Positions 10,071 to 51,889 of a stretch of DNA of 64,000 nucleotides are shown here, in pieces. Origin of the DNA: Nanoarchaeota archaeon SCGC AAA011-D5 (GTDB lineage: Archaea > Nanobdellota > Nanobdellia > Pacearchaeales > GW2011-AR1). Within the stretch, counting starts at the first letter, position 1. Every line of letters starts with the position of its first letter. The stretch lies in assembly GCA_000405225.1 (NCBI GenBank), contig ASMP01000001.1, forward strand, positions 69,191-133,190. Direction: 5' to 3'. Made by a program: the position numbers and the translations under genes. The notes below the pieces were generated by a model. It was given only the letters and a program-made list of their open reading frames with translations. It searched no databases and was not told where the DNA came from.

Positions 10071-10088
10071 GGAATTATCCAGCCACTA

Positions 10089-10155
10089 TATTTGTTACCT
10101 TTATTAAGGAACAACGAAATAGAAACATTATAAATATCAGATTTCTAGAAAAAAC
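10089..10155 (+). promoter_or_regulatory. conserved promoter module, copy 1 (TTGTTAC-N-AACAA palindrome + BRE/TATA, leaderless)
   Basis: Near-identical to 20935-21004 and 38361-38428. TTATAAATA sits about 25 nt upstream of the ATG. Confidence 0.5.
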
Positions 10156-10779
10156 ATGGAAAAAGAACAGCCAATAACAATTGATGCAGAGACCGTAAGA
10201 AGAATGCAATTGAATGCAGGAAGAAGTCCGAGAGTTGCTTTGATGGATATGAATATGATGGTTTCAGTTGTAAATCCTATCAATCCAGTCACTGGAAGAC
10301 CTTACGAAAAAGGATTTATGCTTGAATCTGAAAGAAGAAGAATAAAAAAGGATTATGGCTTAAAAGAATGGAATTCTAATATGTATATAAAATCACTTTT
10401 TTCTTTGCTTTCACAACTAAACCAAGTAATAGAACTCCAAAAAGCTCTAGGAAGAATGGAAGTTAGGGAAGGAAAATTACCTGAATTGTTTTATGAACAA
10501 TTTTTAGACGATATTGATAAATTGGCTGATTTATATGCTCAAAGTCCAGATTTGACTTTGGAATCAATAACTGATGTTAATGGTTTGAATACTGCTCTTA
10601 GAGCAATTAGAAGAGGGAGATTTTTTATAGAAATAGAAAGAAAAGAAATAGAAAGAAACAATTTAAAAGATAATTATTATATGGCGGAACTTCTTAATAC
10701 TATTCCTGTTAAAGAATCTGATATTCCTTGTCTTTTTGATGATTCCTCAAAAAGAAAACCAGAAAACGGACCAAATTAA
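10156..10779 (+). CDS. hypothetical protein driven by the same conserved promoter module as the DGR target genes
   Basis: 207-aa ORF with no recognisable domain. Its upstream 65 nt is a paralog of the DGR-target promoters. Confidence 0.5.
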   Translation: MEKEQPITIDAETVRRMQLNAGRSPRVALMDMNMMVSVVNPINPVTGRPYEKGFMLESERRRIKKDYGLKEWNSNMYIKSLFSLLSQLNQVIELQKALGRMEVREGKLPELFYEQFLDDIDKLADLYAQSPDLTLESITDVNGLNTALRAIRRGRFFIEIERKEIERNNLKDNYYMAELLNTIPVKESDIPCLFDDSSKRKPENGPN

Positions 10780-12524: not shown

Positions 12525-12620
12525 CGCCCGAGGCTGGACTCGAACCAGCGACCCCATGGTCTCCGCATTATCTAATTTTATCTAACAGCCATGTGCTCTG
12601 ACCGACTGAGCTACTCGGGC
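12525..12620 (-). tRNA. tRNA-Asn (anticodon GTT) with ~23-nt intron after position 37
   Basis: Acceptor GCCCGAG/CTCGGGC, D arm GCTC/GAGC, anticodon stem CATGG/CCATG, loop CTGTTA, T arm GCTGG-TTCGAGT-CCAGC, discriminator G. Confidence 0.8.
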
Positions 12621-19773: not shown

Positions 19774-20343
19774 ATGAAAAAAACCTGCGGGTGGCCTGGC
19801 TCTGATTCTGACATGATTGAGTACCACGACAGGGAATGGGGAACTCCTTGCCATGATGACAAGAGGCTTTTCGAATACCTTCTTCTTGATACATTCCAGG
19901 CAGGGTTGAGCTGGAGGACAATCCTCAAAAAAAGGGCGAATTTTGCAAAAGCTTTCCATGGTTTTAATGCAGAAAAAATTTCTAAGTACACAGAAAAAGA
20001 TTTCAAGAGGCTTATGAATGACGAGGGAATAATAAGAAACAGGCTCAAGATTCTCGGAACCATAGAAAACGCGAAAAGATTCCTTGAAATTCAGAAAGAA
20101 TTCGGAAGCTTTGATAAGTATATATGGCAGTTTACAGGACATAAAACAATAAAAAATAAATTCAAAGAGCTGAAAGAACTGCCTGCAAAAACAAAGGAAT
20201 CAGATGTAATGAGCAAAGATATGAAAGAAAGGGGTTTTAAGTTTGTGGGCTCGACAATATGCTATGCATTCATGCAGGGGACAGGAATGGTTAATGACCA
20301 TATTCTAGACTGTTTCAGATATAGCGAGGTTCAGAGGATTTAA
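19774..20343 (+). CDS. tag: DNA-3-methyladenine glycosylase I
   Basis: CGWPGSDSDMIEYHDREWGTPCHDDKRLFEYLLLDTFQAGLSW matches Tag including zinc-snap cysteines. Confidence 0.85.
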   Translation: MKKTCGWPGSDSDMIEYHDREWGTPCHDDKRLFEYLLLDTFQAGLSWRTILKKRANFAKAFHGFNAEKISKYTEKDFKRLMNDEGIIRNRLKILGTIENAKRFLEIQKEFGSFDKYIWQFTGHKTIKNKFKELKELPAKTKESDVMSKDMKERGFKFVGSTICYAFMQGTGMVNDHILDCFRYSEVQRI

Positions 20344-20407: not shown

Positions 20408-20653
20408 ATGGTGCAGAACATAATTGATTTGGGTGAAAATGAAGACAGGATACTAAACATAGTGAAAGCCAAACACGGCCTTAAAAACAAATCCCAGGCA
20501 ATAGCAATGCTAGCCAAAGTCTACGAGGACAGTTTTCTTGAGCCTGAATTGAGGCCGAAATATATAGATAAATTAAAGAAAATTGAGAAAGAAGGATATG
20601 GTAAAACCTTTAAATCTATTGAAGAGTTGAGAAGAATAATAGAGAAAAGGTAA
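20408..20653 (+). CDS. putative antitoxin of a RelE/ParE-type TA pair
   Basis: 81 aa, 1 nt upstream of the toxin. Paralog of 51308-51598 (shared KxKYGLKxKSxAL core). Confidence 0.5.
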   Translation: MVQNIIDLGENEDRILNIVKAKHGLKNKSQAIAMLAKVYEDSFLEPELRPKYIDKLKKIEKEGYGKTFKSIEELRRIIEKR

Positions 20654-20654
20654 A

Positions 20655-20930
20655 ATGCCTAGGCAATATAAGACAAGCAAGAATTTTGATAGAATTCTTG
20701 ATAAGTTGAGGAAAAAAGACAAGATTGCCTTTGAAAGTCTCCTTAAAAAAATGGATGAAATCTTAAATATATCAAATGTAGAGCATTATAAAAATTTGAG
20801 ATATTCTTTAAAAGATTTTAAAAGAGCCCATGTTGGTTCTTTTGTCCTTGTTTTTAGGTATGACAAAAAAAATGACATAATCTTTTTTACAGATTTTGAC
20901 CATCATGATAATATTTATAAGAAAATCTAA
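20655..20930 (+). CDS. RelE/ParE-family toxin
   Basis: 91 aa. FKRAHVGSFVLVFRYDKKNDIIFFTDFDHHDNIYKKI matches the RelE/ParE C-terminal core. Paralog at 51599-51889. Confidence 0.65.
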   Translation: MPRQYKTSKNFDRILDKLRKKDKIAFESLLKKMDEILNISNVEHYKNLRYSLKDFKRAHVGSFVLVFRYDKKNDIIFFTDFDHHDNIYKKI

Positions 20931-20934
20931 CCCT

Positions 20935-21004
20935 TATTTTTGTTACTTCTTTAAAAGAACAACAAAATAGAAACATTTATAAATATCAGATTTCTAGGAA
21001 AAAT
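20935..21004 (+). promoter_or_regulatory. conserved promoter module, copy 2 (upstream of DGR target 1)
   Basis: TTGTTACTTCTTTAAAAGAACAA palindrome, then AAATAGAAACATTTATAAATA (BRE/TATA) about 25 nt from the ATG. Confidence 0.5.
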
Positions 21005-21886
21005 ATGGAAACAAAGACAAAATCAACATTCAAAGGAAAGCCTTTAATTGAAATTCCAGCATTTATACCCCAAATTGGTTTTCTAGAAGGAGATTTTGGT
21101 AGAGCTTTTCTTGAAGAACATCAGGGAAGAGCGGGCTCTGATTATAATGGCAATTCTGCACTGAATGTTCTTGGATATAATGGAAATGTAGTTACAGGGT
21201 CAAATCCATTTTCCGTAGTTCTTGCAAACCAAATTCTTAAACAAGAAGGCCTAAGAACAGCTTCCCAAGCTGACTTAGAAACAGCTATGAGAATTGGGGC
21301 TATGAATTTCAGAGGAACATATGAAGACACAGCTTTAGTTTTGAGAACAGAAGATGATAAAGACTATTCAAGAAACACTCCTTTAGCTAGAGACTTAGGA
21401 AGACAACTTAAAGAAAGAGGAGTAAAGTTCGGAGCTAAAAGTCCACTAATTATTCCTTTGACTGACTTAGATCTTCAAAAAGCAGAAAATGATTATGGTT
21501 TGACATTCAAATTAAGAGAAGATGCAGAAGTTTATGAAGCACCTATTTTAACAAAAGAAGGAAAATTCAATTCAGAAGATATTGATGAAAGAACAGGATT
21601 GCCAAAACAAGTTAAAGGTGGAAATAGAACTCTTTACTCTAGAAATTCTGGGCTTTCCGGGTTGTTCTTGGGCCTCGGCCTGGGCCTGGGCTCGGGCAAC
21701 TGGGGCTTGGACTACTCCAGTGTGGATGGCAGGGTGGTTCTTGTTAGCGCCGCAGGCGCGCGCGCCGATTTTGACCAAAGGCTGACAGGACTTGAAACTC
21801 AAAGACAAGAAGCACATCAGACATATCTTGCTAAATTATCTCAATTAATAGAGAGTATAGACAGTGAACTTAAGAGATCAAAGTAA
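21005..21886 (+). CDS. DGR variable (target) protein 1, carries VR1 near C-terminus
   Basis: 293 aa. C-terminal SGLSGLFLGLGLGLGSGNWGLDYSSVDGRVV is encoded by a sequence matching the TR at every non-adenine position. Paralog of 38429-39199. Confidence 0.7.
   Translation: METKTKSTFKGKPLIEIPAFIPQIGFLEGDFGRAFLEEHQGRAGSDYNGNSALNVLGYNGNVVTGSNPFSVVLANQILKQEGLRTASQADLETAMRIGAMNFRGTYEDTALVLRTEDDKDYSRNTPLARDLGRQLKERGVKFGAKSPLIIPLTDLDLQKAENDYGLTFKLREDAEVYEAPILTKEGKFNSEDIDERTGLPKQVKGGNRTLYSRNSGLSGLFLGLGLGLGSGNWGLDYSSVDGRVVLVSAAGARADFDQRLTGLETQRQEAHQTYLAKLSQLIESIDSELKRSK
21652..21737 (+). repeat. DGR variable repeat VR1
   Basis: About 86 nt aligned to TR 22081-22166. Roughly 22 mismatches, all at TR adenine positions (AAC codons changed to GGC/CTC/TAC etc.). 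Confidence 0.75.
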
Positions 21887-22080
21887 TCTGTTAAATTTAT
21901 AAAATATTTTTTCTTTATAAGATTCCTAGCCAATTTTGCTTAAGGGCAGAGGGCTGGGCCACAAGCCGATTAATAGAGCTTATTCAATTAGGCCATAAAA
22001 TTCAGCTTCGACAACTAGTAAATATGAAAATATTGAAAATTGAAGAAGCGGTGATTTACTTTCAATTAATTGGCTATATT

Positions 22081-22166
22081 GCTTTCCAGGTTGTACTTGA
22101 ACAACGACCTGAACCTGAACTCGAACAACAGGAACTTGGACAACTCCAATGAGAATGGCAGAATGG
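22081..22166 (+). repeat. DGR template repeat (TR)
   Basis: AAC/AAT-rich (CTTGAACAACGACCTGAACCTGAACTCGAACAACAGGAAC...). Lies between the target gene and the RT. Identical to VR1 and VR2 except at adenines. Confidence 0.75.
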
Positions 22167-22194
22167 CTCAGATGGCTAGGATACTCATAATAAT

Positions 22195-23245
22195 ATGCGA
22201 TCTCATGATAACCTTTATCCTAAAATTTATTCTGTAGTAAACCTTGTCTTAGCTTGGAAGAAGGCTAGAAAGGGAAAAACTCGAAGAGATTATGTGATAG
22301 ACTTTGAACTAGAGTTAGGAAAAAACCTGAAGGCTTTGCATGAGGAACTAAAGAATAAGACTTACAGGCCAGGCCCATTAAAAACGTTCATCTTGAGAGA
22401 CCCAAAGACAAGAAAAATCTCGAAATCAGAATTTAGGGATAGGGTAGTTCATCATGCTTTAGTAAGAATGATTGAGCCAATTTTTGACAAAACATTTATT
22501 CATGATTCTTATGCAAACAGAAAAGGCAAAGGCAACCTGTTTGCTGTTGAAAGATTCTATAAATTCATCAGAAAAGTTTCACGAAATGGAAAAACTAAAG
22601 GATGGTTTAATAATAATCAGATAAAAGGATATTGCCTTAAAGCAGACATAAAGCATTATTTCCAAGAAGTTGACCATGAAATTCTATTAAGAATCATAAA
22701 AAAGAAAATAAAAGATAAAGATGTTATCTGGCTTATTGAAAGAATTTTGGAGAATAACGTTCATGATAATCCAAATGGCAAGGGAATGCCTCTTGGAAAT
22801 CTGACAAGCCAATTCTTTGCAAATGTTTATTTGCATGAGTTAGACAAATTTGTGAAACATAAGTTAAGAGCAAAATTTTACATAAGATATGTTGACGATT
22901 TTGTCTTGCTAAATTCATCAAGAGAAAAACTGCTAAGCTGGGGGGGGGGCGATAGAAGATTTTTTAGTTAAAAACCTAAAAATAGAACTTCATAAAGAAA
23001 AATCCAAAATTATCTCTCTTTCAAAAGGAATAGATTTTGTCGGCTTCAGGAATTTTTATCATTTCAGGCTTTTGAGGAAAAGAAACATCAGAAAAATGAT
23101 TTTTAATGTTAAAAAATATAAAAATAGGGAAATAAACAAGGAAAATCTTCTTGAAAGCTTTCAAGGCTGGAATGCCTATGCAAAATGGGCAGATAGTTTT
23201 GAATTAAGAAAAAATATTGTGAAAGAAATTTATAGTATAAAGTAG
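22195..23245 (+). CDS. DGR reverse transcriptase. Reading frame broken at a G10 run (22940-22949). Annotated ORF 22195-22971 plus in-phase continuation to 23245
   Basis: SYANRKGKG, LKADIKHYFQEVDH, the DGR-specific motif-4 variant MPLGNLTSQFFANVYL (xGxxxSQ instead of QGxxxSP), catalytic IRYVDDFVLL. After a +1 shift the frame continues IEDFLVKNLKIELHKEKS...GIDFVGF...FQGWNAYAKWADS. Confidence 0.85.
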
Positions 23246-28264: not shown

Positions 28265-28371
28265 TGCACCAGCCGGGAATCGGACCCGGATTACAAGATT
28301 CTTCCGTTGGACGAACGCCTAGGCGTAGTCATTCGTGGGAATCTTGAGTTCTGCCGTTAAACCACTGGTGC
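28265..28371 (-). tRNA. intron-containing tRNA, probably tRNA-Gly (anticodon CCC), ~36-nt intron
   Basis: Acceptor GCACCAG/CTGGTGC 7/7, D arm GTTT/GAAC, anticodon stem CAAGA/TCTTG with loop TTCCCA then intron containing palindrome ACGCCTAGGCGT, T stem CCGGG/CCCGG with atypical loop TCCGATT. Isotype uncertain. Confidence 0.55.
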
Positions 28372-35972: not shown

Positions 35973-38354
35973 ATGCCCATAACAAAACAAGAATTGACAG
36001 AGCTCTTTGAACAGCTTGGACAATACAAAACAAGGGCTACAGAACTTATAACTGTATATATTCCTGCCGGACAGAACATATATACGGTGGCTGACCAGCT
36101 CGAGGCAGAGAAATCTACTGCGAAAAACATAAAATCTGCAGGAACCAGGAAAAATGTCGGCAATGCTCTTGATAAGATAACCAGGCAGCTTAAGGAATAC
36201 AAAAAAACCCCTGAAAACGGTCTTGCAATTTTTTGCGGGAACATATCCAAAGTTGAAGGCCAAGAAGATTTACAACTTTGGGCTATAGAGCCTCACACGC
36301 CTCTGAAAACAAGAATGTATCGCTGTGACAAAGAATTTATTCTTGATCCTCTGAGAGAAATGCTGGAAGTGACAGAGGTTTTTGGACTTTTGGTCATGGA
36401 CAGGAGAGAGGCAACAATTGGCATGCTTGAGGGAAAAAGGATAGAGACTCTTCATAAAATGACTTCAGGTATTCCTTCAAAAATAAGGGCCGGAGGGCAA
36501 TGCTTAGCTCAGGATACATTGATTATGAAAGATAATGGGGAAATCTTAGAAATTCAGAATTCACACAACCCCTTAATGATTATTTCTGAGAATTTTAATC
36601 AAGAGAGATCAGAAATGACACCCTTAATTGCTAAATGGGAAAATAACAAAGAATTGTTTAGGGTTATAACAAAATATCCTAAATTAGAGGTTAAAGCATC
36701 TGGTGAACATACTTTCTTTGTTAGGACAACCAGAGGTATAGAGGAAAAAACTCTTTCTGAACTTAAAGAGGGAGATTATCTAATTATGCCTGAAAAGATT
36801 AATTTACATTTGGAAGACCAAAAAATTGTCTTTTCTCCAGAAATTAAACAAGCCTTTAATATGAAAAATATCCAAACTCTTAATAAAGTTATTCCTGATT
36901 TTGCTAGAATTTTGGGCTATTATCTTGGAGATGGATGTTATGAAATTGACAGATTAACTTTCTTTGAACAGAGAGGAGAAGTAGCTAGATATTATCTGGA
37001 TTTAATTGAGAAGGTTTTTGGAATTAAATCTGACTTAAGATTTAGAAAAGATAAAAATTATTGGCAATTAAGGGTTTATAGCAGATTGGTCTCTCAATTA
37101 TTTAAACAAATTTATCCTGGACAAGATAAAACCCATGCCGGAAGAATACCCCCTATCATATTAAAATCTTCTGATATTGCCCTAGCTTCTTTCATTGGGG
37201 GATTTTTTGATGCTGAAGGATATGTTGCAAAAACAAGAATTGCTGCAGGATTTAACAATGAATTGTTAGCTAGACAATTACAATTTGCTTTATTGAGGGT
37301 AGGTATCATATCTTCAATAAATATTTATGATAATAGAAGAAACCCTTATTCAGACAAATTTAGATATACTCTGGCAATTGACGATTTAGAATCTATTAAA
37401 ATCTTCCAAAAAATGATTAACTTTTGTTCTGAAGAAAAAAGGAATAAGATTCAAAACCTAATTAACAAGAGGAGCAATAGAAATAAAGTTAGGCAATTAG
37501 TTGTAAATGGGAAAGAGATTGCTAGAATAATAAGGAATTCTGGTTTAAATACGAGGCAATTTAGCTGCCCTGATTTCTTTAATAATAAGAAACAATTAAG
37601 TAAAAAGGTATTTAAAAAGAGAATCTTAGATAAAATTAGTAATAATGACCTAAAAAGAAGATTAGAAATGTTCTATAATTCCAACCTTATAATTGTCAAA
37701 ATTAATAATATTAAATCGGTTGGTATTCAGAAAACTATAGATATAGAAACTAAAAACCATAACTTTATTGCCAATGGTTTAATAGTCCACAATTCAAGCC
37801 AGAGATTTCACAGAATAACAGAAGGCCTGACAAAAGAATTCTATAAGAGAATTGCAGAAGACATGAAAAAAATTTTCCTTGGAATGCCAAAACTTAAAGG
37901 AATACTGATAGGGGGCCCGATACCGACTAAAGACGAGTTTTTAAAAGGGGAATATCTGACAAATCAGCTTCAGCAGAAAGTAATGGGAAAGATAGACATA
38001 GGAGATGCCTCTGAGTCTGGTCTGGGAGAACTGGTGGAAAAAGCGAAGAATCTTTTGGCAGACCAAGAGAGGCTTCAGGAAAAAAAAGACGTTGAACTTT
38101 TCTTCAGGGTTTTAGGGGAAGACCCTGGAAAAGCAGCACTCGGTGAAAAAGAAAGCAGAAAGGCCTTGGAAATGGGAGCTGTTGCTACTTTATATGTAAG
38201 TTCCAAGATTCCCAAGAGTCTTATAAAAGAACTTTCAAAAATGACCGAAAACACAGGTTCAGAAATAAAGACCATTTCTACAGATACACCGGAAGGCGAG
38301 CAGTTTTTTAATATGGGCGGAGTAGGAGCAATTTTAAGATTCAGGATTGGGTAA
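35973..38354 (+). CDS. prf1: peptide chain release factor aRF1 interrupted by an intein
   Basis: NIKS motif (TAKNIKSAG) and GGQ loop (IRAGGQ) followed directly by Cys. Extein resumes SSQRFHRITEG. C-terminal domain matches eRF1. Confidence 0.85.
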   Translation: MPITKQELTELFEQLGQYKTRATELITVYIPAGQNIYTVADQLEAEKSTAKNIKSAGTRKNVGNALDKITRQLKEYKKTPENGLAIFCGNISKVEGQEDLQLWAIEPHTPLKTRMYRCDKEFILDPLREMLEVTEVFGLLVMDRREATIGMLEGKRIETLHKMTSGIPSKIRAGGQCLAQDTLIMKDNGEILEIQNSHNPLMIISENFNQERSEMTPLIAKWENNKELFRVITKYPKLEVKASGEHTFFVRTTRGIEEKTLSELKEGDYLIMPEKINLHLEDQKIVFSPEIKQAFNMKNIQTLNKVIPDFARILGYYLGDGCYEIDRLTFFEQRGEVARYYLDLIEKVFGIKSDLRFRKDKNYWQLRVYSRLVSQLFKQIYPGQDKTHAGRIPPIILKSSDIALASFIGGFFDAEGYVAKTRIAAGFNNELLARQLQFALLRVGIISSINIYDNRRNPYSDKFRYTLAIDDLESIKIFQKMINFCSEEKRNKIQNLINKRSNRNKVRQLVVNGKEIARIIRNSGLNTRQFSCPDFFNNKKQLSKKVFKKRILDKISNNDLKRRLEMFYNSNLIIVKINNIKSVGIQKTIDIETKNHNFIANGLIVHNSSQRFHRITEGLTKEFYKRIAEDMKKIFLGMPKLKGILIGGPIPTKDEFLKGEYLTNQLQQKVMGKIDIGDASESGLGELVEKAKNLLADQERLQEKKDVELFFRVLGEDPGKAALGEKESRKALEMGAVATLYVSSKIPKSLIKELSKMTENTGSEIKTISTDTPEGEQFFNMGGVGAILRFRIG
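36501..37793 (+). mobile_element. intein with LAGLIDADG homing endonuclease, inserted after GGQ of aRF1
   Basis: Starts with Cys (CLAQDTLI), ends ...GLIVHN followed by Ser. Two LAGLIDADG-type motifs ILGYYLGDGCYE and FIGGFFDAEGYV. About 431 aa. Confidence 0.75.
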
Positions 38355-38360
38355 ATCAAT

Positions 38361-38428
38361 AATTTGTTACCTCTTTCAAAGAACAATAAAATAGAAAAAT
38401 TTATAAAGTTCATTTTTCTGGGAAAATT
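38361..38428 (+). promoter_or_regulatory. conserved promoter module, copy 3 (upstream of DGR target 2)
   Basis: TTTGTTACCTCTTTCAAAGAACAATAAAATAGAAAAATTTATAAAG... homologous to copies 1 and 2. Confidence 0.5.
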
Positions 38429-39199
38429 ATGGAAACAAAGGCAAAACGTCCAGTATTCAATGGAAAGCCGTTAATTGCAATTCCAGCAGTTATTCCACAG
38501 GCAGGTTTTCTTGAAGGAGACTTTGGAAAAGCTTTCTTAGAAGAATATCAAGGAAGAGTTAAATCTGATTATAAAGGAAATTTTGTTTTAGATGTTCTCA
38601 AATATGGAAATGATGTTGTAAAAGGCTCAAATCCTTTTGCAGTTGTTCTTGCAAACCAGATTCTCAGGCAGGAAGGATTAAGAACAGCAACACAAGCTGA
38701 CCTTGAAAAAGCACTTAGAATTGGTTGGAATTTAAGAGGAACATATGAAGATACTGGTCTGGTTTTAAGAACAAAAGAAGACAAAGACAATCCAAAAAAT
38801 ACTCCTTTAGCGAAAGATATTAGCTCTCAACTTATGGCAAGGGGAATAAAATTCAGTCCTAAGAATCCAGTAATGGTTCCTTTAACAGGACTGGAACTTG
38901 CGAATGCAGATAATGATTACAGATTAACATTCATATTAAGGGAAGACGCAGAAGCTTATGAAGCACCTATTTTAACAAAAGAAGGAAAATTCAATTCAGA
39001 AGATATTGATGAAAAAACAGGATTACCAAGACAAGTTAAAGGCGGAGACAGATGCATTTATGCTAGAAACTCTGGGCTTTCCGGGTTGTGCTTGGGCGGC
39101 GGCCTGGTCCTGAGCTCGAGCGACGGGGGCTTGGGCGGCTCCTATGAGGATGGCAGGGTGGTCGTTGTAAGTGCTGAAGGCACCTCACAAAATTCTTGA
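38429..39199 (+). CDS. DGR variable (target) protein 2, remote paralog carrying VR2
   Basis: 256 aa, roughly 70% identical to 21005-21886 over the N-terminal 210 aa. C-terminus diverges only where the TR has adenines. Confidence 0.7.
   Translation: METKAKRPVFNGKPLIAIPAVIPQAGFLEGDFGKAFLEEYQGRVKSDYKGNFVLDVLKYGNDVVKGSNPFAVVLANQILRQEGLRTATQADLEKALRIGWNLRGTYEDTGLVLRTKEDKDNPKNTPLAKDISSQLMARGIKFSPKNPVMVPLTGLELANADNDYRLTFILREDAEAYEAPILTKEGKFNSEDIDEKTGLPRQVKGGDRCIYARNSGLSGLCLGGGLVLSSSDGGLGGSYEDGRVVVVSAEGTSQNS
39076..39161 (+). repeat. DGR variable repeat VR2 (remote)
   Basis: Aligns to TR 22081-22166. About 22 mismatches, all at TR adenines. Substitutions differ from VR1 (for example AAC to GTC/AGC/GAC). 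Confidence 0.7.
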
Positions 39200-51125: not shown

Positions 51126-51257
51126 GGCTCCGTAGCTCAGCCTGGTAGAGCACTGGACTCTTATGAGGAGAACCAAGGTTCTCCCTACACTACCCTCTCC
51201 TTTACAAGAGAAATCAGAGAGATCCAGGTGTCGTGGGTTCAAATCCCATCGGGGCCA
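51126..51257 (+). tRNA. tRNA-Lys (anticodon CTT) with 58-nt intron (51164-51221)
   Basis: Acceptor GGCTCCG/CGGGGCC, D arm GCTC-AGCCTGGTA-GAGC, anticodon stem CTGGA/TCCAG, loop CTCTTA|intron|A, T arm GTGGG-TTCAAAT-CCCAT, discriminator A. Confidence 0.85.
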
Positions 51258-51598: not shown

Positions 51599-51889
51599 AT
51601 GTTTGATTTTAATCTTACAGATGAACTTAAGTCGATAATAGAAAAATTAGCAAAAAAGGACAAAAAAAGATCCGAGATTATAAATAAAAAAATAAAGCAG
51701 ATAATTAACTCTGATTCTGCATCTATACAGCATTATAAGAATTTAAGACAGGATTTAAAAGAATTTAAAGCTGTTCATATAGATTCAAGTTTTGTTCTTG
51801 TTTTTAGAGTTGATATTGCTAAGAATTTTATTCTTTTCGTTGACTTTGACCACCACGATAAAATCTATAAGAAAAAATATAGATTATGA
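51599..51889 (+). CDS. RelE/ParE-family toxin (paralog of 20655-20930)
   Basis: FKAVHIDSSFVLVFRVDIAKNFILFVDFDHHDKIYKK. Confidence 0.65.
   Translation: MFDFNLTDELKSIIEKLAKKDKKRSEIINKKIKQIINSDSASIQHYKNLRQDLKEFKAVHIDSSFVLVFRVDIAKNFILFVDFDHHDKIYKKKYRL

Follow-up and report, generated by a model that had tools for sequence, protein, structure and literature searches.

Diversity-generating retroelements (DGRs) constitute the main reverse transcriptases (RTs) of DPANN archaea, where they are thought to tune surface proteins for host attachment by these tiny symbionts, and an accessory gene (avd, HRDC or similar) is present in about 70% of DGRs.

Among the systems described to date, the closest solved relative of the RT considered here is that of the Bordetella phage BPP-1 DGR (bRT-Avd, PDB 8ub7, bioRxiv 10.1101/2023.10.23.563531), in which mutagenesis is adenine-specific, the template is enclosed by a duplex of sequences up- and downstream of the template repeat (TR), namely the avd:Sp cPRT Stop duplex, and the Sp region (Rfam RT-10) lies 3' of the TR. 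The Nanoarchaeota (DUSEL4) DGRs and their variable protein AvpA (Paul et al. 2015, PMC4372165; Handa et al. 2016, PMC5006420) come from the same host group as the present locus; there, an IMH of TGGGGT is opposed to an IMH* of TGGAAT, and internal hairpins with a GRA loop have been described in the target genes (PMC4372165). The structured RNA RT-16 (Rfam RF03019) was described, without a role, as an orphan motif found 'near RT genes' (Weinberg et al. 2017, PMC5737381). A further point of comparison is provided by contingency loci in Campylobacter, Neisseria and Haemophilus, where simple-sequence repeats (poly-G or short units) bring about phase variation.

The locus described here is, in the most probable reading, a chromosomal, Avd-less DGR of a DPANN archaeon (the group of Nanoarchaeota, Woesearchaeota and Pacearchaeota), and we propose that a hypermutable run of G residues reversibly sets its RT off (G10, G11) or on (G9, G12). 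The following features, other than those of the RT gene, are found in the window, by which we mean the whole 64-kb stretch of DNA that was analysed.

21005-21886, plus strand: target gene 1 (293 aa), a variable protein with a predicted C-type-lectin-like (CLec-like) domain followed by a C-terminal helix (residues 252-292)
21652-21737, plus strand: variable repeat VR1, encoding residues 217-244 of target 1
21730-21737, plus strand: IMH-like end of VR1, CAGGGTGG, with GG in both VRs where the TR has AA
21747-21759, plus strand: candidate DNA hairpin GCGCC-GCA-GGCGC, 10 nt 3' of VR1 and within the coding sequence
21896-21905, plus strand: putative TATA-like box TTTATAAAAT, recognised from sequence, with the RT-16 RNA starting about 20 nt downstream
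21924-21932, plus strand: 5' strand of a long-range helix, UCCUAGCCA
21925-22082, plus strand: RT-16 RNA (Rfam RF03019), a structured non-coding RNA adjoining the 5' end of the TR
22081-22166, plus strand: TR, with 29 adenines and about 1e15 possible peptides
22159-22166, plus strand: IMH*-like end of the TR, CAGAATGG, with AA where both VRs have GG
22173-22181, plus strand: 3' partner segment of the long-range helix, just 3' of the TR
38429-39199, plus strand: target gene 2 (256 aa, P0004), a paralogue 17.4 kb away without the C-terminal helix
39076-39161, plus strand: variable repeat VR2
39171-39183, plus strand: candidate hairpin GTGCU-GAA-GGCAC with a GRA triloop, 10 nt 3' of VR2

Repeats, neighbours and accessory genes

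The TR aligns without gaps over 86 nt with VR1 and with VR2, and each pair has 22 mismatches. All 44 of these differences fall on TR adenines (29 of the 86 nucleotides), and 0 of the 57 non-adenine positions is changed (hypergeometric p = 9e-15 per pair), with a sharp loss of similarity at both ends of the repeat. The substitutions are predominantly A>G, which sets the locus apart from BPP-1: relative to the TR, VR1 has 16 A>G, 5 A>T and 1 A>C, and VR2 has 20 A>G and 2 A>T. An earlier note made from the sequence alone had described about 22 adenine-only mismatches between 22081-22166 and 21652-21737, and had proposed tallying substitutions by TR base against both this VR and 39076-39161, with a spread over the four bases as the outcome that would speak against a DGR. 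Its description proved exact, and its account of a template rich in AAC and AAT codons is matched by the 10 AAY codons in the translation of the TR in the target frame, LSRLYLNNDLNLNSNNRNLDNSNENGRM. As in other DGRs, the VR lies towards the 3' end of a target that codes for protein (residues 217-244 of 293). Moreover, outside the window the same contig carries a third target paralogue, P0002, the VR of which is compatible with this TR too, such that three paralogous VRs have been diversified independently from one template. The presence of three cellular targets, two of them remote, is another difference from BPP-1.

The GG-for-AA difference between the VR and TR ends agrees with the published nanoarchaeal IMH and IMH*, and the triloop hairpin within the target coding sequence is a second likeness to these DGRs, the loop after VR1 being GCA, however, rather than GRA. 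The hairpins after VR1 and VR2 share their 10-nt offset and differ by one compensatory pair change. Because their DNA folding energies show no improvement over those of shuffled sequences, they are put forward as candidates on positional and comparative grounds.

The cassette has the order target, RT-16 RNA, TR and RT, with 194 nt between the target stop codon and the TR, and only about 28 nt from the TR to the start codon of the RT, the latter again differing from BPP-1. No Avd-sized ORF is found in the 194-nt gap, and there is no ORF of any kind between target and RT, unlike the arrangement in both BPP-1 and the Nanoarchaeota (DUSEL4) DGRs. In addition, the only families that recur in the surroundings of 73 related RT genes are those of targets, none being a family of small ORFs, and Avd was thus rejected as a linked component. 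The claim of the earlier note that an Avd-like gene is missing is borne out, and the linked neighbourhood holds no accessory gene; we infer a DGR without any accessory protein, while a distant or unlinked accessory gene may exist. With regard to the flanks named in that note, the ATP-dependent ligase does lie directly downstream, on the minus strand, whereas the tag glycosylase (19774-20343) is no immediate neighbour, being separated from target gene 1 by a toxin-antitoxin pair (20408-20930).

The same layout of target, TR and RT, with adenine-only TR/VR mismatches, is found in about 60 related DPANN loci and genomes. Because the cassette recurs so widely, the DGR adds one more member to a class already known, and both it and its CLec-like target are ordinary and expected for this group of organisms. 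The interpretation of the element as a DGR, first made in the earlier note, is supported by the adenine-only mismatches, the DGR-like RT, the recurring cassette, and the placement of the IMH/IMH* ends and hairpins.

The RT-16 RNA and the target proteins

The covariance model of RT-16 matches over its full length (model positions 1-158) and scores 104.4 bits (E 4e-17), well over the gathering threshold of 50. In contrast to its published status as an orphan, RT-16 adjoins the DGR template in all 10 related loci scanned (11 of 11 loci overall), and its 5' strand, which has an alternative local pairing with 21952-21958 (Rfam P1), also covaries with a second partner located past the TR. Cognate pairings of this long-range helix have a median of 7 Watson-Crick pairs, as compared to 4-5 for non-cognate pairings (p 5e-12 to 2e-13), and the covariation rests on 45 distinct helix sequences. 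The helix encloses RT-16 and the TR together, and its 3' partner segment can be likened to the cPRT Stop duplex of BPP-1. This arrangement suggests that the template-enclosing duplex of the Bordetella phage ribonucleoprotein has been kept in Avd-less DGRs, although the structured RNA is 5' of the TR here and 3' of it, as the Sp region, in the phage. RT-16 appears to be a DGR RNA scaffold situated 5' of the template, which would give the orphan Rfam motif a role. The TATA-like box is the putative promoter of a transcript carrying RT-16, the TR and the RT; a scan for bacterial promoters and terminators was uninformative, the host being an archaeon. RT-16, which fills the gap between target and TR, had been missed in the earlier note.

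The target sequence family has no match in Pfam, NCBIfam or a phmmer search of the PDB, and a profile of 54 target sequences found nothing in the PDB, AvpA included. The AvpA motifs GxxVVVYAH, HPxxxPFxG and RFxGV are absent from all 25 ORFs of the family that lie close to related RT genes. The confident AF2 model of the target (pLDDT 89) suggests a C-type-lectin-like fold, with a likeness to TaqVP, AvpA and C-type lectins, in which the 17 rewritten VR codons would lie on the presumed binding face. The target has no signal peptide, and a position on the cell surface would be hypothetical. The likeness to TaqVP of Thermus aquaticus (PDB 5vf4; PMC6328139), a protein of a bacterial host with 11% sequence identity to the target, was not recovered by Foldseek, which gave no significant match of the model in the PDB. 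AvpA shares with the target a short internal VR (about 27-28 codons) and, after it, some 46-48 residues of helical tail. The earlier remark that no fold can be recognised in the target holds for sequence, whereas the predicted structure points to a CLec-like one; this predicted fold and the third paralogue outside the window had both been missed.

The reverse transcriptase gene and its G-run

The RT gene is made up of the following parts.

22195-22949, plus strand: N-terminal part of the RT (fingers and palm), with SYANRKGKG, LGNLTSQ and YVDD, and including the G-run at its end
22940-22949, plus strand: G10 homopolymer that breaks the RT frame, a candidate phase-variation tract
22950-23245, plus strand: C-terminal part of the RT (last portion of the palm, plus thumb), read in the +1 frame and open until the stop codon at 23243-23245

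The frame that starts at 22195 ends at a stop codon at 22971, shortly past the G10 run, and the conserved C-terminal third of the RT resumes in the +1 frame up to 23245. The RT frame is therefore not intact; G9 or G12 would bring it back, and with one G fewer (G9) a 349-aa RT is obtained. The G10 run is the sole run of G or C of at least 8 nt in the 64 kb. Of the earlier claims for the RT, the motifs SYANRKGKG, GMPLGNLTSQ and YVDD are present, whereas a single ORF across 22195-23245 is not, the frame break at the G10 run having gone unnoticed.

With one G removed, the best PDB match of the RT is the Bordetella phage DGR RT 8ub7 (E 5.8e-42), as opposed to E 8e-20 for group II intron RTs and 3e-19 for retron-type RTs. 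The alignment to 8ub7 covers residues 3-337, and the C-terminal part aligns to bRT through residue 315. LGNLTSQ fits the DGR RT motif [I/V/L]GxxxSQ (defined in PMC7826257), YVDD fits YxDD, and the arginine equivalent to R74 is shared with BPP-1. The assignment in the earlier note to a DGR-type RT, rather than one that groups with group II introns or retrons, is in agreement with this ranking and with the xGxxxSQ signature.

Repeat tracts in related genes and a possible switch

Tracts of this kind are common in the clade. Across 73 related RT genes, there are 33 long poly-G or (GA)n repeats in 69.8 kb of RT gene sequence as compared to 4 in 620 kb of flanking sequence, an enrichment of about 70-fold, and all are on the sense strand. 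Only 4 of the 33 are in frame, which is below the neutral expectation of one in three, and 29 are out of frame; in the case of (GA)n, 1 of 15 is in frame and 14 are not. Among the poly-G loci, 10 require a -1 shift and 5 a +1 shift, whereas 11 of the (GA)n loci require +1 and 3 require -1. Downstream of the tracts the reading frames are still open and conserved. Overall, about 45% of the related RT genes (about 34 of 74 loci) are broken, almost only at repeats that occupy three loop positions, in lineages with RTs 53-79% identical to that of the window; TR/VR pairs are equally clean in broken-RT and intact-RT loci.

At the site of the G10 run, relatives have G6, G7, G9 and G11. The L034 lineage includes G9, G10 and G11 alleles in near-identical surrounding sequence. 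For instance, L078, L079 and L080 have G10 where L034 has G11, and over the 5.75 kb in which L079 and L034 were compared, the difference lies solely in the G-run. P0247 represents an in-frame G9 allele at this site, known from protein sequence only. L077 (G12, with a full 369-aa RT) and L041 (G11, RT broken), alleles of one population sampled at Hainich, were both obtained from a single aquifer well and show 7 differences over 5.3 kb. Protein alleles are consistent with G8 to G13. G11 is oddly dominant, occurring in 9 lineages, and is the longest tract among the 73 surveyed loci, G12 and an inferred G13 being found among cluster-derived alleles. The window thus contains a simple-sequence repeat in an ORF that shifts its frame, and on and off length alleles occur in near-identical genomes of sister lineages, the window strain being represented by a single assembly, the truncated RT of which (P0124) is alone in its cluster. 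A pattern scan of metagenomes for tract variation in the same strain recovered only L075, which is the L070 contig, and L076, with G9 as in L005. The VRs of the on (L077) and off (L041) assemblies do not differ, and so reveal no link between RT state and diversification.

From the enrichment of the tracts and the natural alleles that differ in length only, we infer a reversible RT switch, with change of tract length turning the RT on or off in this organism. The rarity of in-frame tracts, the dominance of G11 and the ceiling of 11 nt could also be accounted for by obligatory recoding or by a technical limit. A rival reading is that G10 is in truth G9, miscounted in sequencing or assembly, leaving the RT intact and always expressed, with the other alleles homopolymer errors too. 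Consistent with such an error, the full RT is regained with one G fewer, and a population assembled twice, as L076 and L005, has G9 both times. Long G-runs are error-prone in Illumina data, where indel errors increase with such runs, and some of the allele differences could be technical. A miscount is nonetheless unlikely, as it leaves unexplained the existence and enrichment of G and GA tracts in AT-rich RT genes, and (GA)n, although no known error hotspot, is mostly out of frame. In addition, each allele is found on several independent contigs (16, 9 and 5 for three distinct 190-aa, G11-type sequences; three independent assemblies for G10), and the G12 contig of L077 has 120x coverage. Programmed recoding, by -1 or +1 slippage of the ribosome or slippage of RNA polymerase on the tract to yield a constitutive low level of RT, would accommodate the prevalence of out-of-frame lengths, the recurrence of G11 and the sense-strand location of every tract, and after a slip on a G-run perfect re-pairing of the tRNA would be possible. 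The required shift is mixed in direction, however, and these lineages also include in-frame alleles that encode a full-length RT (G12 in L077; G9 in L005, L014 and P0247), while tract length differs among near-identical genomes, unlike a conserved recoding signal, making this mechanism somewhat less probable still than a miscount.

The broken RT of the assembly, and of nearly half of its relatives, might instead be read as the first step in the pseudogenisation of a decaying DGR, with VRs that are fossils of earlier activity. Decay is very improbable given that the frame past the tract is conserved and open to its normal stop codon, that non-adenine mismatches of the TR with either VR number zero, and that breaks are clustered at repeats and three loop positions, unlike random decay; the clean TR/VR pairs of broken-RT loci, together with the open downstream frames, likewise led to the rejection of the pseudogene reading. 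As for the element not being a DGR at all, and instead a group II intron or retron RT next to ordinary paralogous sequence, NCBIfam, which holds no matching DGR model, does give sub-threshold matches to group II, Drt3a, Drt2 and retron RT models. All of these scores are far under the cut-offs, in the PDB search the E-value of the match to the DGR RT is better by 22 orders of magnitude, and the non-coding TR matches the paralogues in the 86-nt VR block alone, with adenine-only differences. The adenine-only pairs and the PDB ranking refute this reading, and its probability is negligible.

Under the preferred reading of an Avd-less DGR with a switchable RT, a single transcript would probably start about 20 nt past the TATA-like box and carry the RT-16 RNA, the 86-nt TR and the RT frame, with the 5' end of RT-16 pairing with the segment just 3' of the TR to enclose both elements. 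The RT would then make cDNA of the TR, misreading adenines, here mostly as G, and this cDNA would replace the VR in at least three paralogous targets (the two of the window and a third from another part of the contig), the IMH-like GGGTGG end and the hairpin 10 nt downstream presumably serving as guides. The likely outcome is the rewriting of the 17 codons of the presumed binding face of the CLec-like protein. The G-run would act as a hypermutable simple-sequence repeat that reversibly sets hypermutation off at G10 or G11 and on at G9 or G12. Whether the poly-G and (GA)n tracts in tolerant RT loops serve across the clade as a heritable and reversible hypermutation switch, with the mutator off in most cells and on in a minority, is a proposal for which we consider the chances evenly balanced.

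Similar to the contingency loci of Campylobacter, Neisseria and Haemophilus, the tract is a long poly-G or dinucleotide repeat in a reading frame of an AT-rich genome, and tract lengths differ in near-identical genomes to give in- and out-of-frame alleles. In contrast to these loci, the host is an archaeon, the gene encodes an enzyme of targeted hypermutation as opposed to a surface or restriction-modification function, and switching and its reversibility are proposed. The G-run is also a difference from the Nanoarchaeota (DUSEL4) DGRs, such tracts being unmentioned in the papers on DGRs examined; the literature on DGRs and DPANN RTs that was covered, a scope that does not include the Paul et al. 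2017 survey, has no report of frameshift, homopolymer or phase variation. Suppression of hypermutation under stable conditions has only been speculated upon in reviews (PMC8867640), and a frame-shifting repeat in the RT, with on and off alleles in one aquifer population, provides a concrete hypothesis for how the mutator is restrained. If true, it would represent a contingency locus governing a diversity generator, and a clear archaeal case of repeat-mediated phase variation. In practical terms, surveys that demand an intact RT ORF would drop or shorten nearly half of this clade. Lastly, because homologues without a tract read TGG AAA AAA at the site of the window's G-run, the tracts may even owe their origin to A>G changes that the RT itself introduced into A-runs.

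Repeats and reverse transcriptase of the retroelement

The cassette read in the earlier note as a diversity-generating retroelement (DGR) is a real DGR, an interpretation upheld by adenine-only differences between its template repeat (TR) and variable repeats (VRs) and by a DGR-type reverse transcriptase (RT). It belongs to the DPANN DGR class described in Paul et al. 2015 (PMC4372165), and ~80% of DPANN RTs are DGRs (PMC8632793); an element of this already-known kind is expected in a DPANN genome. Three features go beyond the routine: an RT broken at a repeat, in a lineage-wide pattern; RT-16, here assigned as the DGR RNA next to the template and enclosed with it by a covarying helix; and a C-type lectin (CLec)-like target family undetectable by sequence search. 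The main features are:

21005-21886, target 1, with VR1 at 21652-21737
21925-22082, Rfam RT-16 (RF03019) RNA, full length, 104 bits (gathering score 50)
22081-22166, TR
22195-23245, RT gene, with a G10 run at 22940-22949
38429-39199, target 2, with VR2 at 39076-39161

When the full 86-nt TR was run along the entire window without gaps, with changes permitted solely at adenines, exactly two further sites matched, VR1 and VR2. Each carries 22 mismatches, all at TR adenines and 0 at the 57 non-A positions, as the earlier note had claimed for VR1 and as the tally by TR base now gives for VR2. With 29 adenines in 86 nt, such a distribution would arise by chance at ~9e-15 per TR/VR pair, and similarity drops sharply beyond both limits on each side. 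Read in the target frame, the TR contains 10 AAY codons and 17 variable codons, with ~1e15 peptides possible. Substitutions are predominantly A>G (16/22 in VR1, 20/22 in VR2; 36 of 44 overall), and because of this bias VR1 is very glycine-rich. The bias could stem from the RT or from selection; in the Bordetella phage BPP-1 DGR, misincorporation opposite template adenines most often involves dATP (PMC7826257).

The TR ends in CAGAATGG and the VRs in CAGGGTGG, the last two TR adenines being GG in both VRs. This is the IMH*/IMH distinction of TR- and VR-end signals in nanoarchaeal DGRs, TGGAAT versus TGGGGT (PMC4372165). Hairpins of 5 bp with a 3-nt loop lie 10 nt past VR1 (GCGCC-GCA-GGCGC) and VR2 (GTGCT-GAA-GGCAC), differing from one another by a single compensatory pair; their folding energies are no better than those of shuffles, and they are thus positional candidates only.

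The RT gene is not the single ORF 22195-23245 of the earlier note. The ORF from 22195 stops at 22971, after 258 codons, and the conserved remainder continues in the +1 frame through 23245, the two frames meeting at the G10 run. With G9 or G12 in its place, a continuous RT of 349 or 350 aa results. The frame-repaired protein matches Pfam RVT_1, and its nearest solved structure is the Bordetella phage DGR RT 8ub7 (E 5.8e-42, residues 3-337), as compared with 8e-20 for group II intron RTs and 3e-19 for retron-type RTs in the same structure-database search. It also possesses LGNLTSQ, matching the DGR-RT signature [I/V/L]GxxxSQ, and an arginine equivalent to R74 of the BPP-1 RT. The DGR-type assignment therefore stands, and a closer affinity to group II intron or retron RTs, with the motif missing, is contradicted.

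When one genome per species was scanned, 74 loci encoding relatives of the RT were recovered, all but L071 in metagenome-assembled genomes and nearly all labelled DPANN archaea; L071 (Endozoicomonas, 25% identity) was left out. At ~60 of the 74, a TR of ~90 nt ends ~25 nt ahead of the RT start codon, and 290-540 nt upstream, on the same strand, there is a VR that differs at adenines only, with extra VRs 1-4.5 kb off in some cases. Four target families of ~240-265 aa, placed ~1.1 kb upstream of the RT, are the only gene families to recur in the vicinity of these RT genes. Across L001-L074, a single RT clade is thereby accompanied by at least four families of target that are mutually unrelated by sequence, the window's family accounting for 20 loci. 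No small ORF resembling the accessory protein Avd recurs near related RT genes, in agreement with the earlier report that the cassette has none.

Simple-sequence tracts in the RT genes

Approximately 34 of the 74 RT loci are frame-broken, nearly all at a simple-sequence repeat. The tracts occupy three loop positions:

After YVDD (the window's site): G11 in L034 and L070, G9 in L005, G7 in L001, G6 in L003
Just ahead of GMPLGNLTSQ: G8-G11 then CGA, or (GA)6.5-13.5, often then CGCG
Near residue 150: third position

With cut-offs of ≥8 nt for G or C runs and ≥6 units for GA/TC repeats, the RT genes (69.8 kb) contain 33 tracts, all on the sense strand, and the flanks (620 kb) contain 4; the window's 64 kb holds a single such tract, inside the RT gene. 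In-frame tracts number 4 of 33 (L005, L014, L067, L026) and out-of-frame tracts 29, and the reading frames past the tracts remain open and conserved.

Length alleles are also found within lineages. When RT fragments were clustered at ≥90% identity, proteins were identical as far as the tract and thereafter split by frame. For instance, the L041 lineage has broken G8, G10 and G11 tails and a G12 form encoding a full 369-aa RT (P0257), and the L054 lineage has broken G8, G10, G11 and G13 tails plus full-length forms of 339-344 aa. In the L034 lineage, with the tract at the window's own site, G11 occurs on 6 contigs and G10 on 3, while an in-frame G9 form (P0247) is known from protein sequence only. 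Loci L077 (G12, 120x coverage) and L041 (G11) were both assembled from one aquifer well; across 5,319 bp they diverge at 7 positions, the G-run being the sole difference inside the RT gene. Likewise, the G-run is the only difference between L079 (G10) and L034 (G11) over 5,754 bp, and G10 recurs in two more independent assemblies of that lineage. Near-identical contig pairs show few substitutions, clumped in short patches outside the DGR, such as 9 differences in 25 nt downstream of the RT (L005 7045-7069 versus L076) and 5 in 10 nt in a region with a called tRNA-synthetase gene (L080 4305-4314 versus L034).

A switch is proposed, on the grounds that the tracts are enriched, lie at loop positions and leave the frames downstream of them preserved, and that in- and out-of-frame alleles co-occur. 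The pattern is like that of bacterial contingency loci, such as Campylobacter poly-G tracts: a change in tract length would turn the RT, and hence hypermutation, on and off, and the window's element is proposed to be off in this assembly, one G from on. A decaying DGR is opposed by the TR/VR pairs of broken-RT loci, which are as clean as those of intact-RT loci (non-A mismatch rate 3.6% in both, an apparent value that is largely an artefact of pair-end extension) and as diversified (mean A mismatches 16.7 versus 14.8). Programmed recoding at the tract, by which the genomic frame would be corrected during expression, is a live alternative, but loci would need shifts in different directions, and some genomic alleles are in frame. 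Slippage during transcription could make the off state of the proposed switch leaky. Long G-runs are prone to sequencing error, and the alleles are known from assemblies and protein clusters of relatives. In-frame tracts are fewer than the neutral expectation of one in three, the dominance of G11 is odd, and VRs are identical between the G12 and G11 assemblies (L077, L041). A literature search, with Paul et al. 2017 (reportedly on the same DPANN DGR class) outside its scope, found no description of DGR RT genes with repeats, frameshifts or phase variation.

In the window (22940-22949) and its closest relatives the tract reads TGG GGG GGG GCG AT. (WGGAI), and tract-less homologues (L002, L011, L013, L067, L069) read TGG AAA AAA CAA/GAA ATT (WKKQ/EI). 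The G-run resembles an A6 run converted A>G, the commonest change in this DGR's VRs, and it is tempting to speculate that the RT's own mutagenesis made it. Two other RT genes are broken near the 5' end by perfect tandem duplications of 19-20 nt (L023 4686-4740, L060 6134-6184), which could be a further lesion type able to revert.

RT-16 RNA and its enclosing helix

RT-16 fills the target-to-TR gap and ends at the TR start, as it also does in 10/10 related loci scanned. It is among the 19 orphan motifs described near RT genes, of which only RT-10, the BPP-1 TR-to-RT spacer, was linked to a DGR (PMC5737381). Its 5' end (21924-21932, UCCUAGCCA) complements a strand directly past the TR (22173-22181, UGGCUAGGA). 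In an alignment of 58 loci, Watson-Crick helix length had a median of 7 for cognate strand pairs versus 4-5 for non-cognate pairs (p 5e-12 to 2e-13), with 45 different helix sequences among the former. Covariation (p 1e-8) also links the 5' strand to its local partner in Rfam P1; this mutually exclusive pairing is shorter (median 6 versus 7 Watson-Crick pairs) and, in the examples inspected, depends on G-U pairs. RT-16 is assigned as a template-adjacent DGR RNA, with the predicted distal helix enclosing both RT-16 and the TR.

The helix is the counterpart of the TR-flanking avd:Sp 'cPRT Stop' duplex of BPP-1, a type predicted in 207 other DGRs (bioRxiv 10.1101/2023.10.23.563531), whereas here most of the structured RNA is 5' of the template and Avd is lacking. 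A TATA-like box precedes the helix strand by ~20 nt, which suggests that transcription would begin at that strand.

Target proteins and neighbouring genes

Targets 1 (293 aa) and 2 (256 aa) are members of a family with at least 253 proteins, all annotated 'hypothetical protein' and, where the source names an organism, almost always from DPANN. The alignment shows a well conserved scaffold and a single hypervariable block, SGLSxLxLxxxLxLxSxxxxLxxSxxxGRVVVVS, in which the invariant positions correspond to TR positions lacking adenine. P0002, a third paralogue with 85% identity, is encoded beyond the window on the same 273-kb contig, and its own version of the VR is likewise compatible with this TR; a single TR/RT unit therefore has at least three targets, of which two are remote.

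Neither target has a sequence match in Pfam, NCBIfam or the PDB, a 54-sequence profile search included. The earlier description of the fold as unrecognisable thus holds by sequence, but not for a family that appears CLec-like. As in AvpA, a known nanoarchaeal DGR variable protein, the target has an internal VR of ~27 codons, a helical tail of ~46 residues and a hairpin within the coding sequence (PMC5006420), whereas AvpA sequence motifs are absent. It is therefore filed as a distinct, probably CLec-fold family with an AvpA-like mode of action.

An ~85-nt stretch of upstream and 5' sequence (64-94% identity), including TATA-like TTTATAAATA and the first codons ATGGAAA, is common to both targets (20925-21011, 38349-38435) and to an unrelated 207-aa ORF with no family match (stretch 10077-10162, ORF 10156-10779), and may reflect their co-regulation. 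Directly upstream of target 1 is a toxin-antitoxin-like pair (20408-20930) that comprises an 81-aa DUF2683 protein and a 91-aa toxin of the YafQ/RelE/ParE type; 61 nt of the gene for this toxin show 74% identity to 51726-51786, suggesting a second copy there. The aRF1 release-factor gene (35973-38354, 793 aa) ends 75 nt ahead of target 2 and, judging from its translation, seems to include an intein-like insert that has a homing-endonuclease-like region. Finally, tRNA matches at 12525-12620, 28265-28371 and 51126-51257 are 96-132 nt long, implying intron-bearing archaeal tRNA genes.
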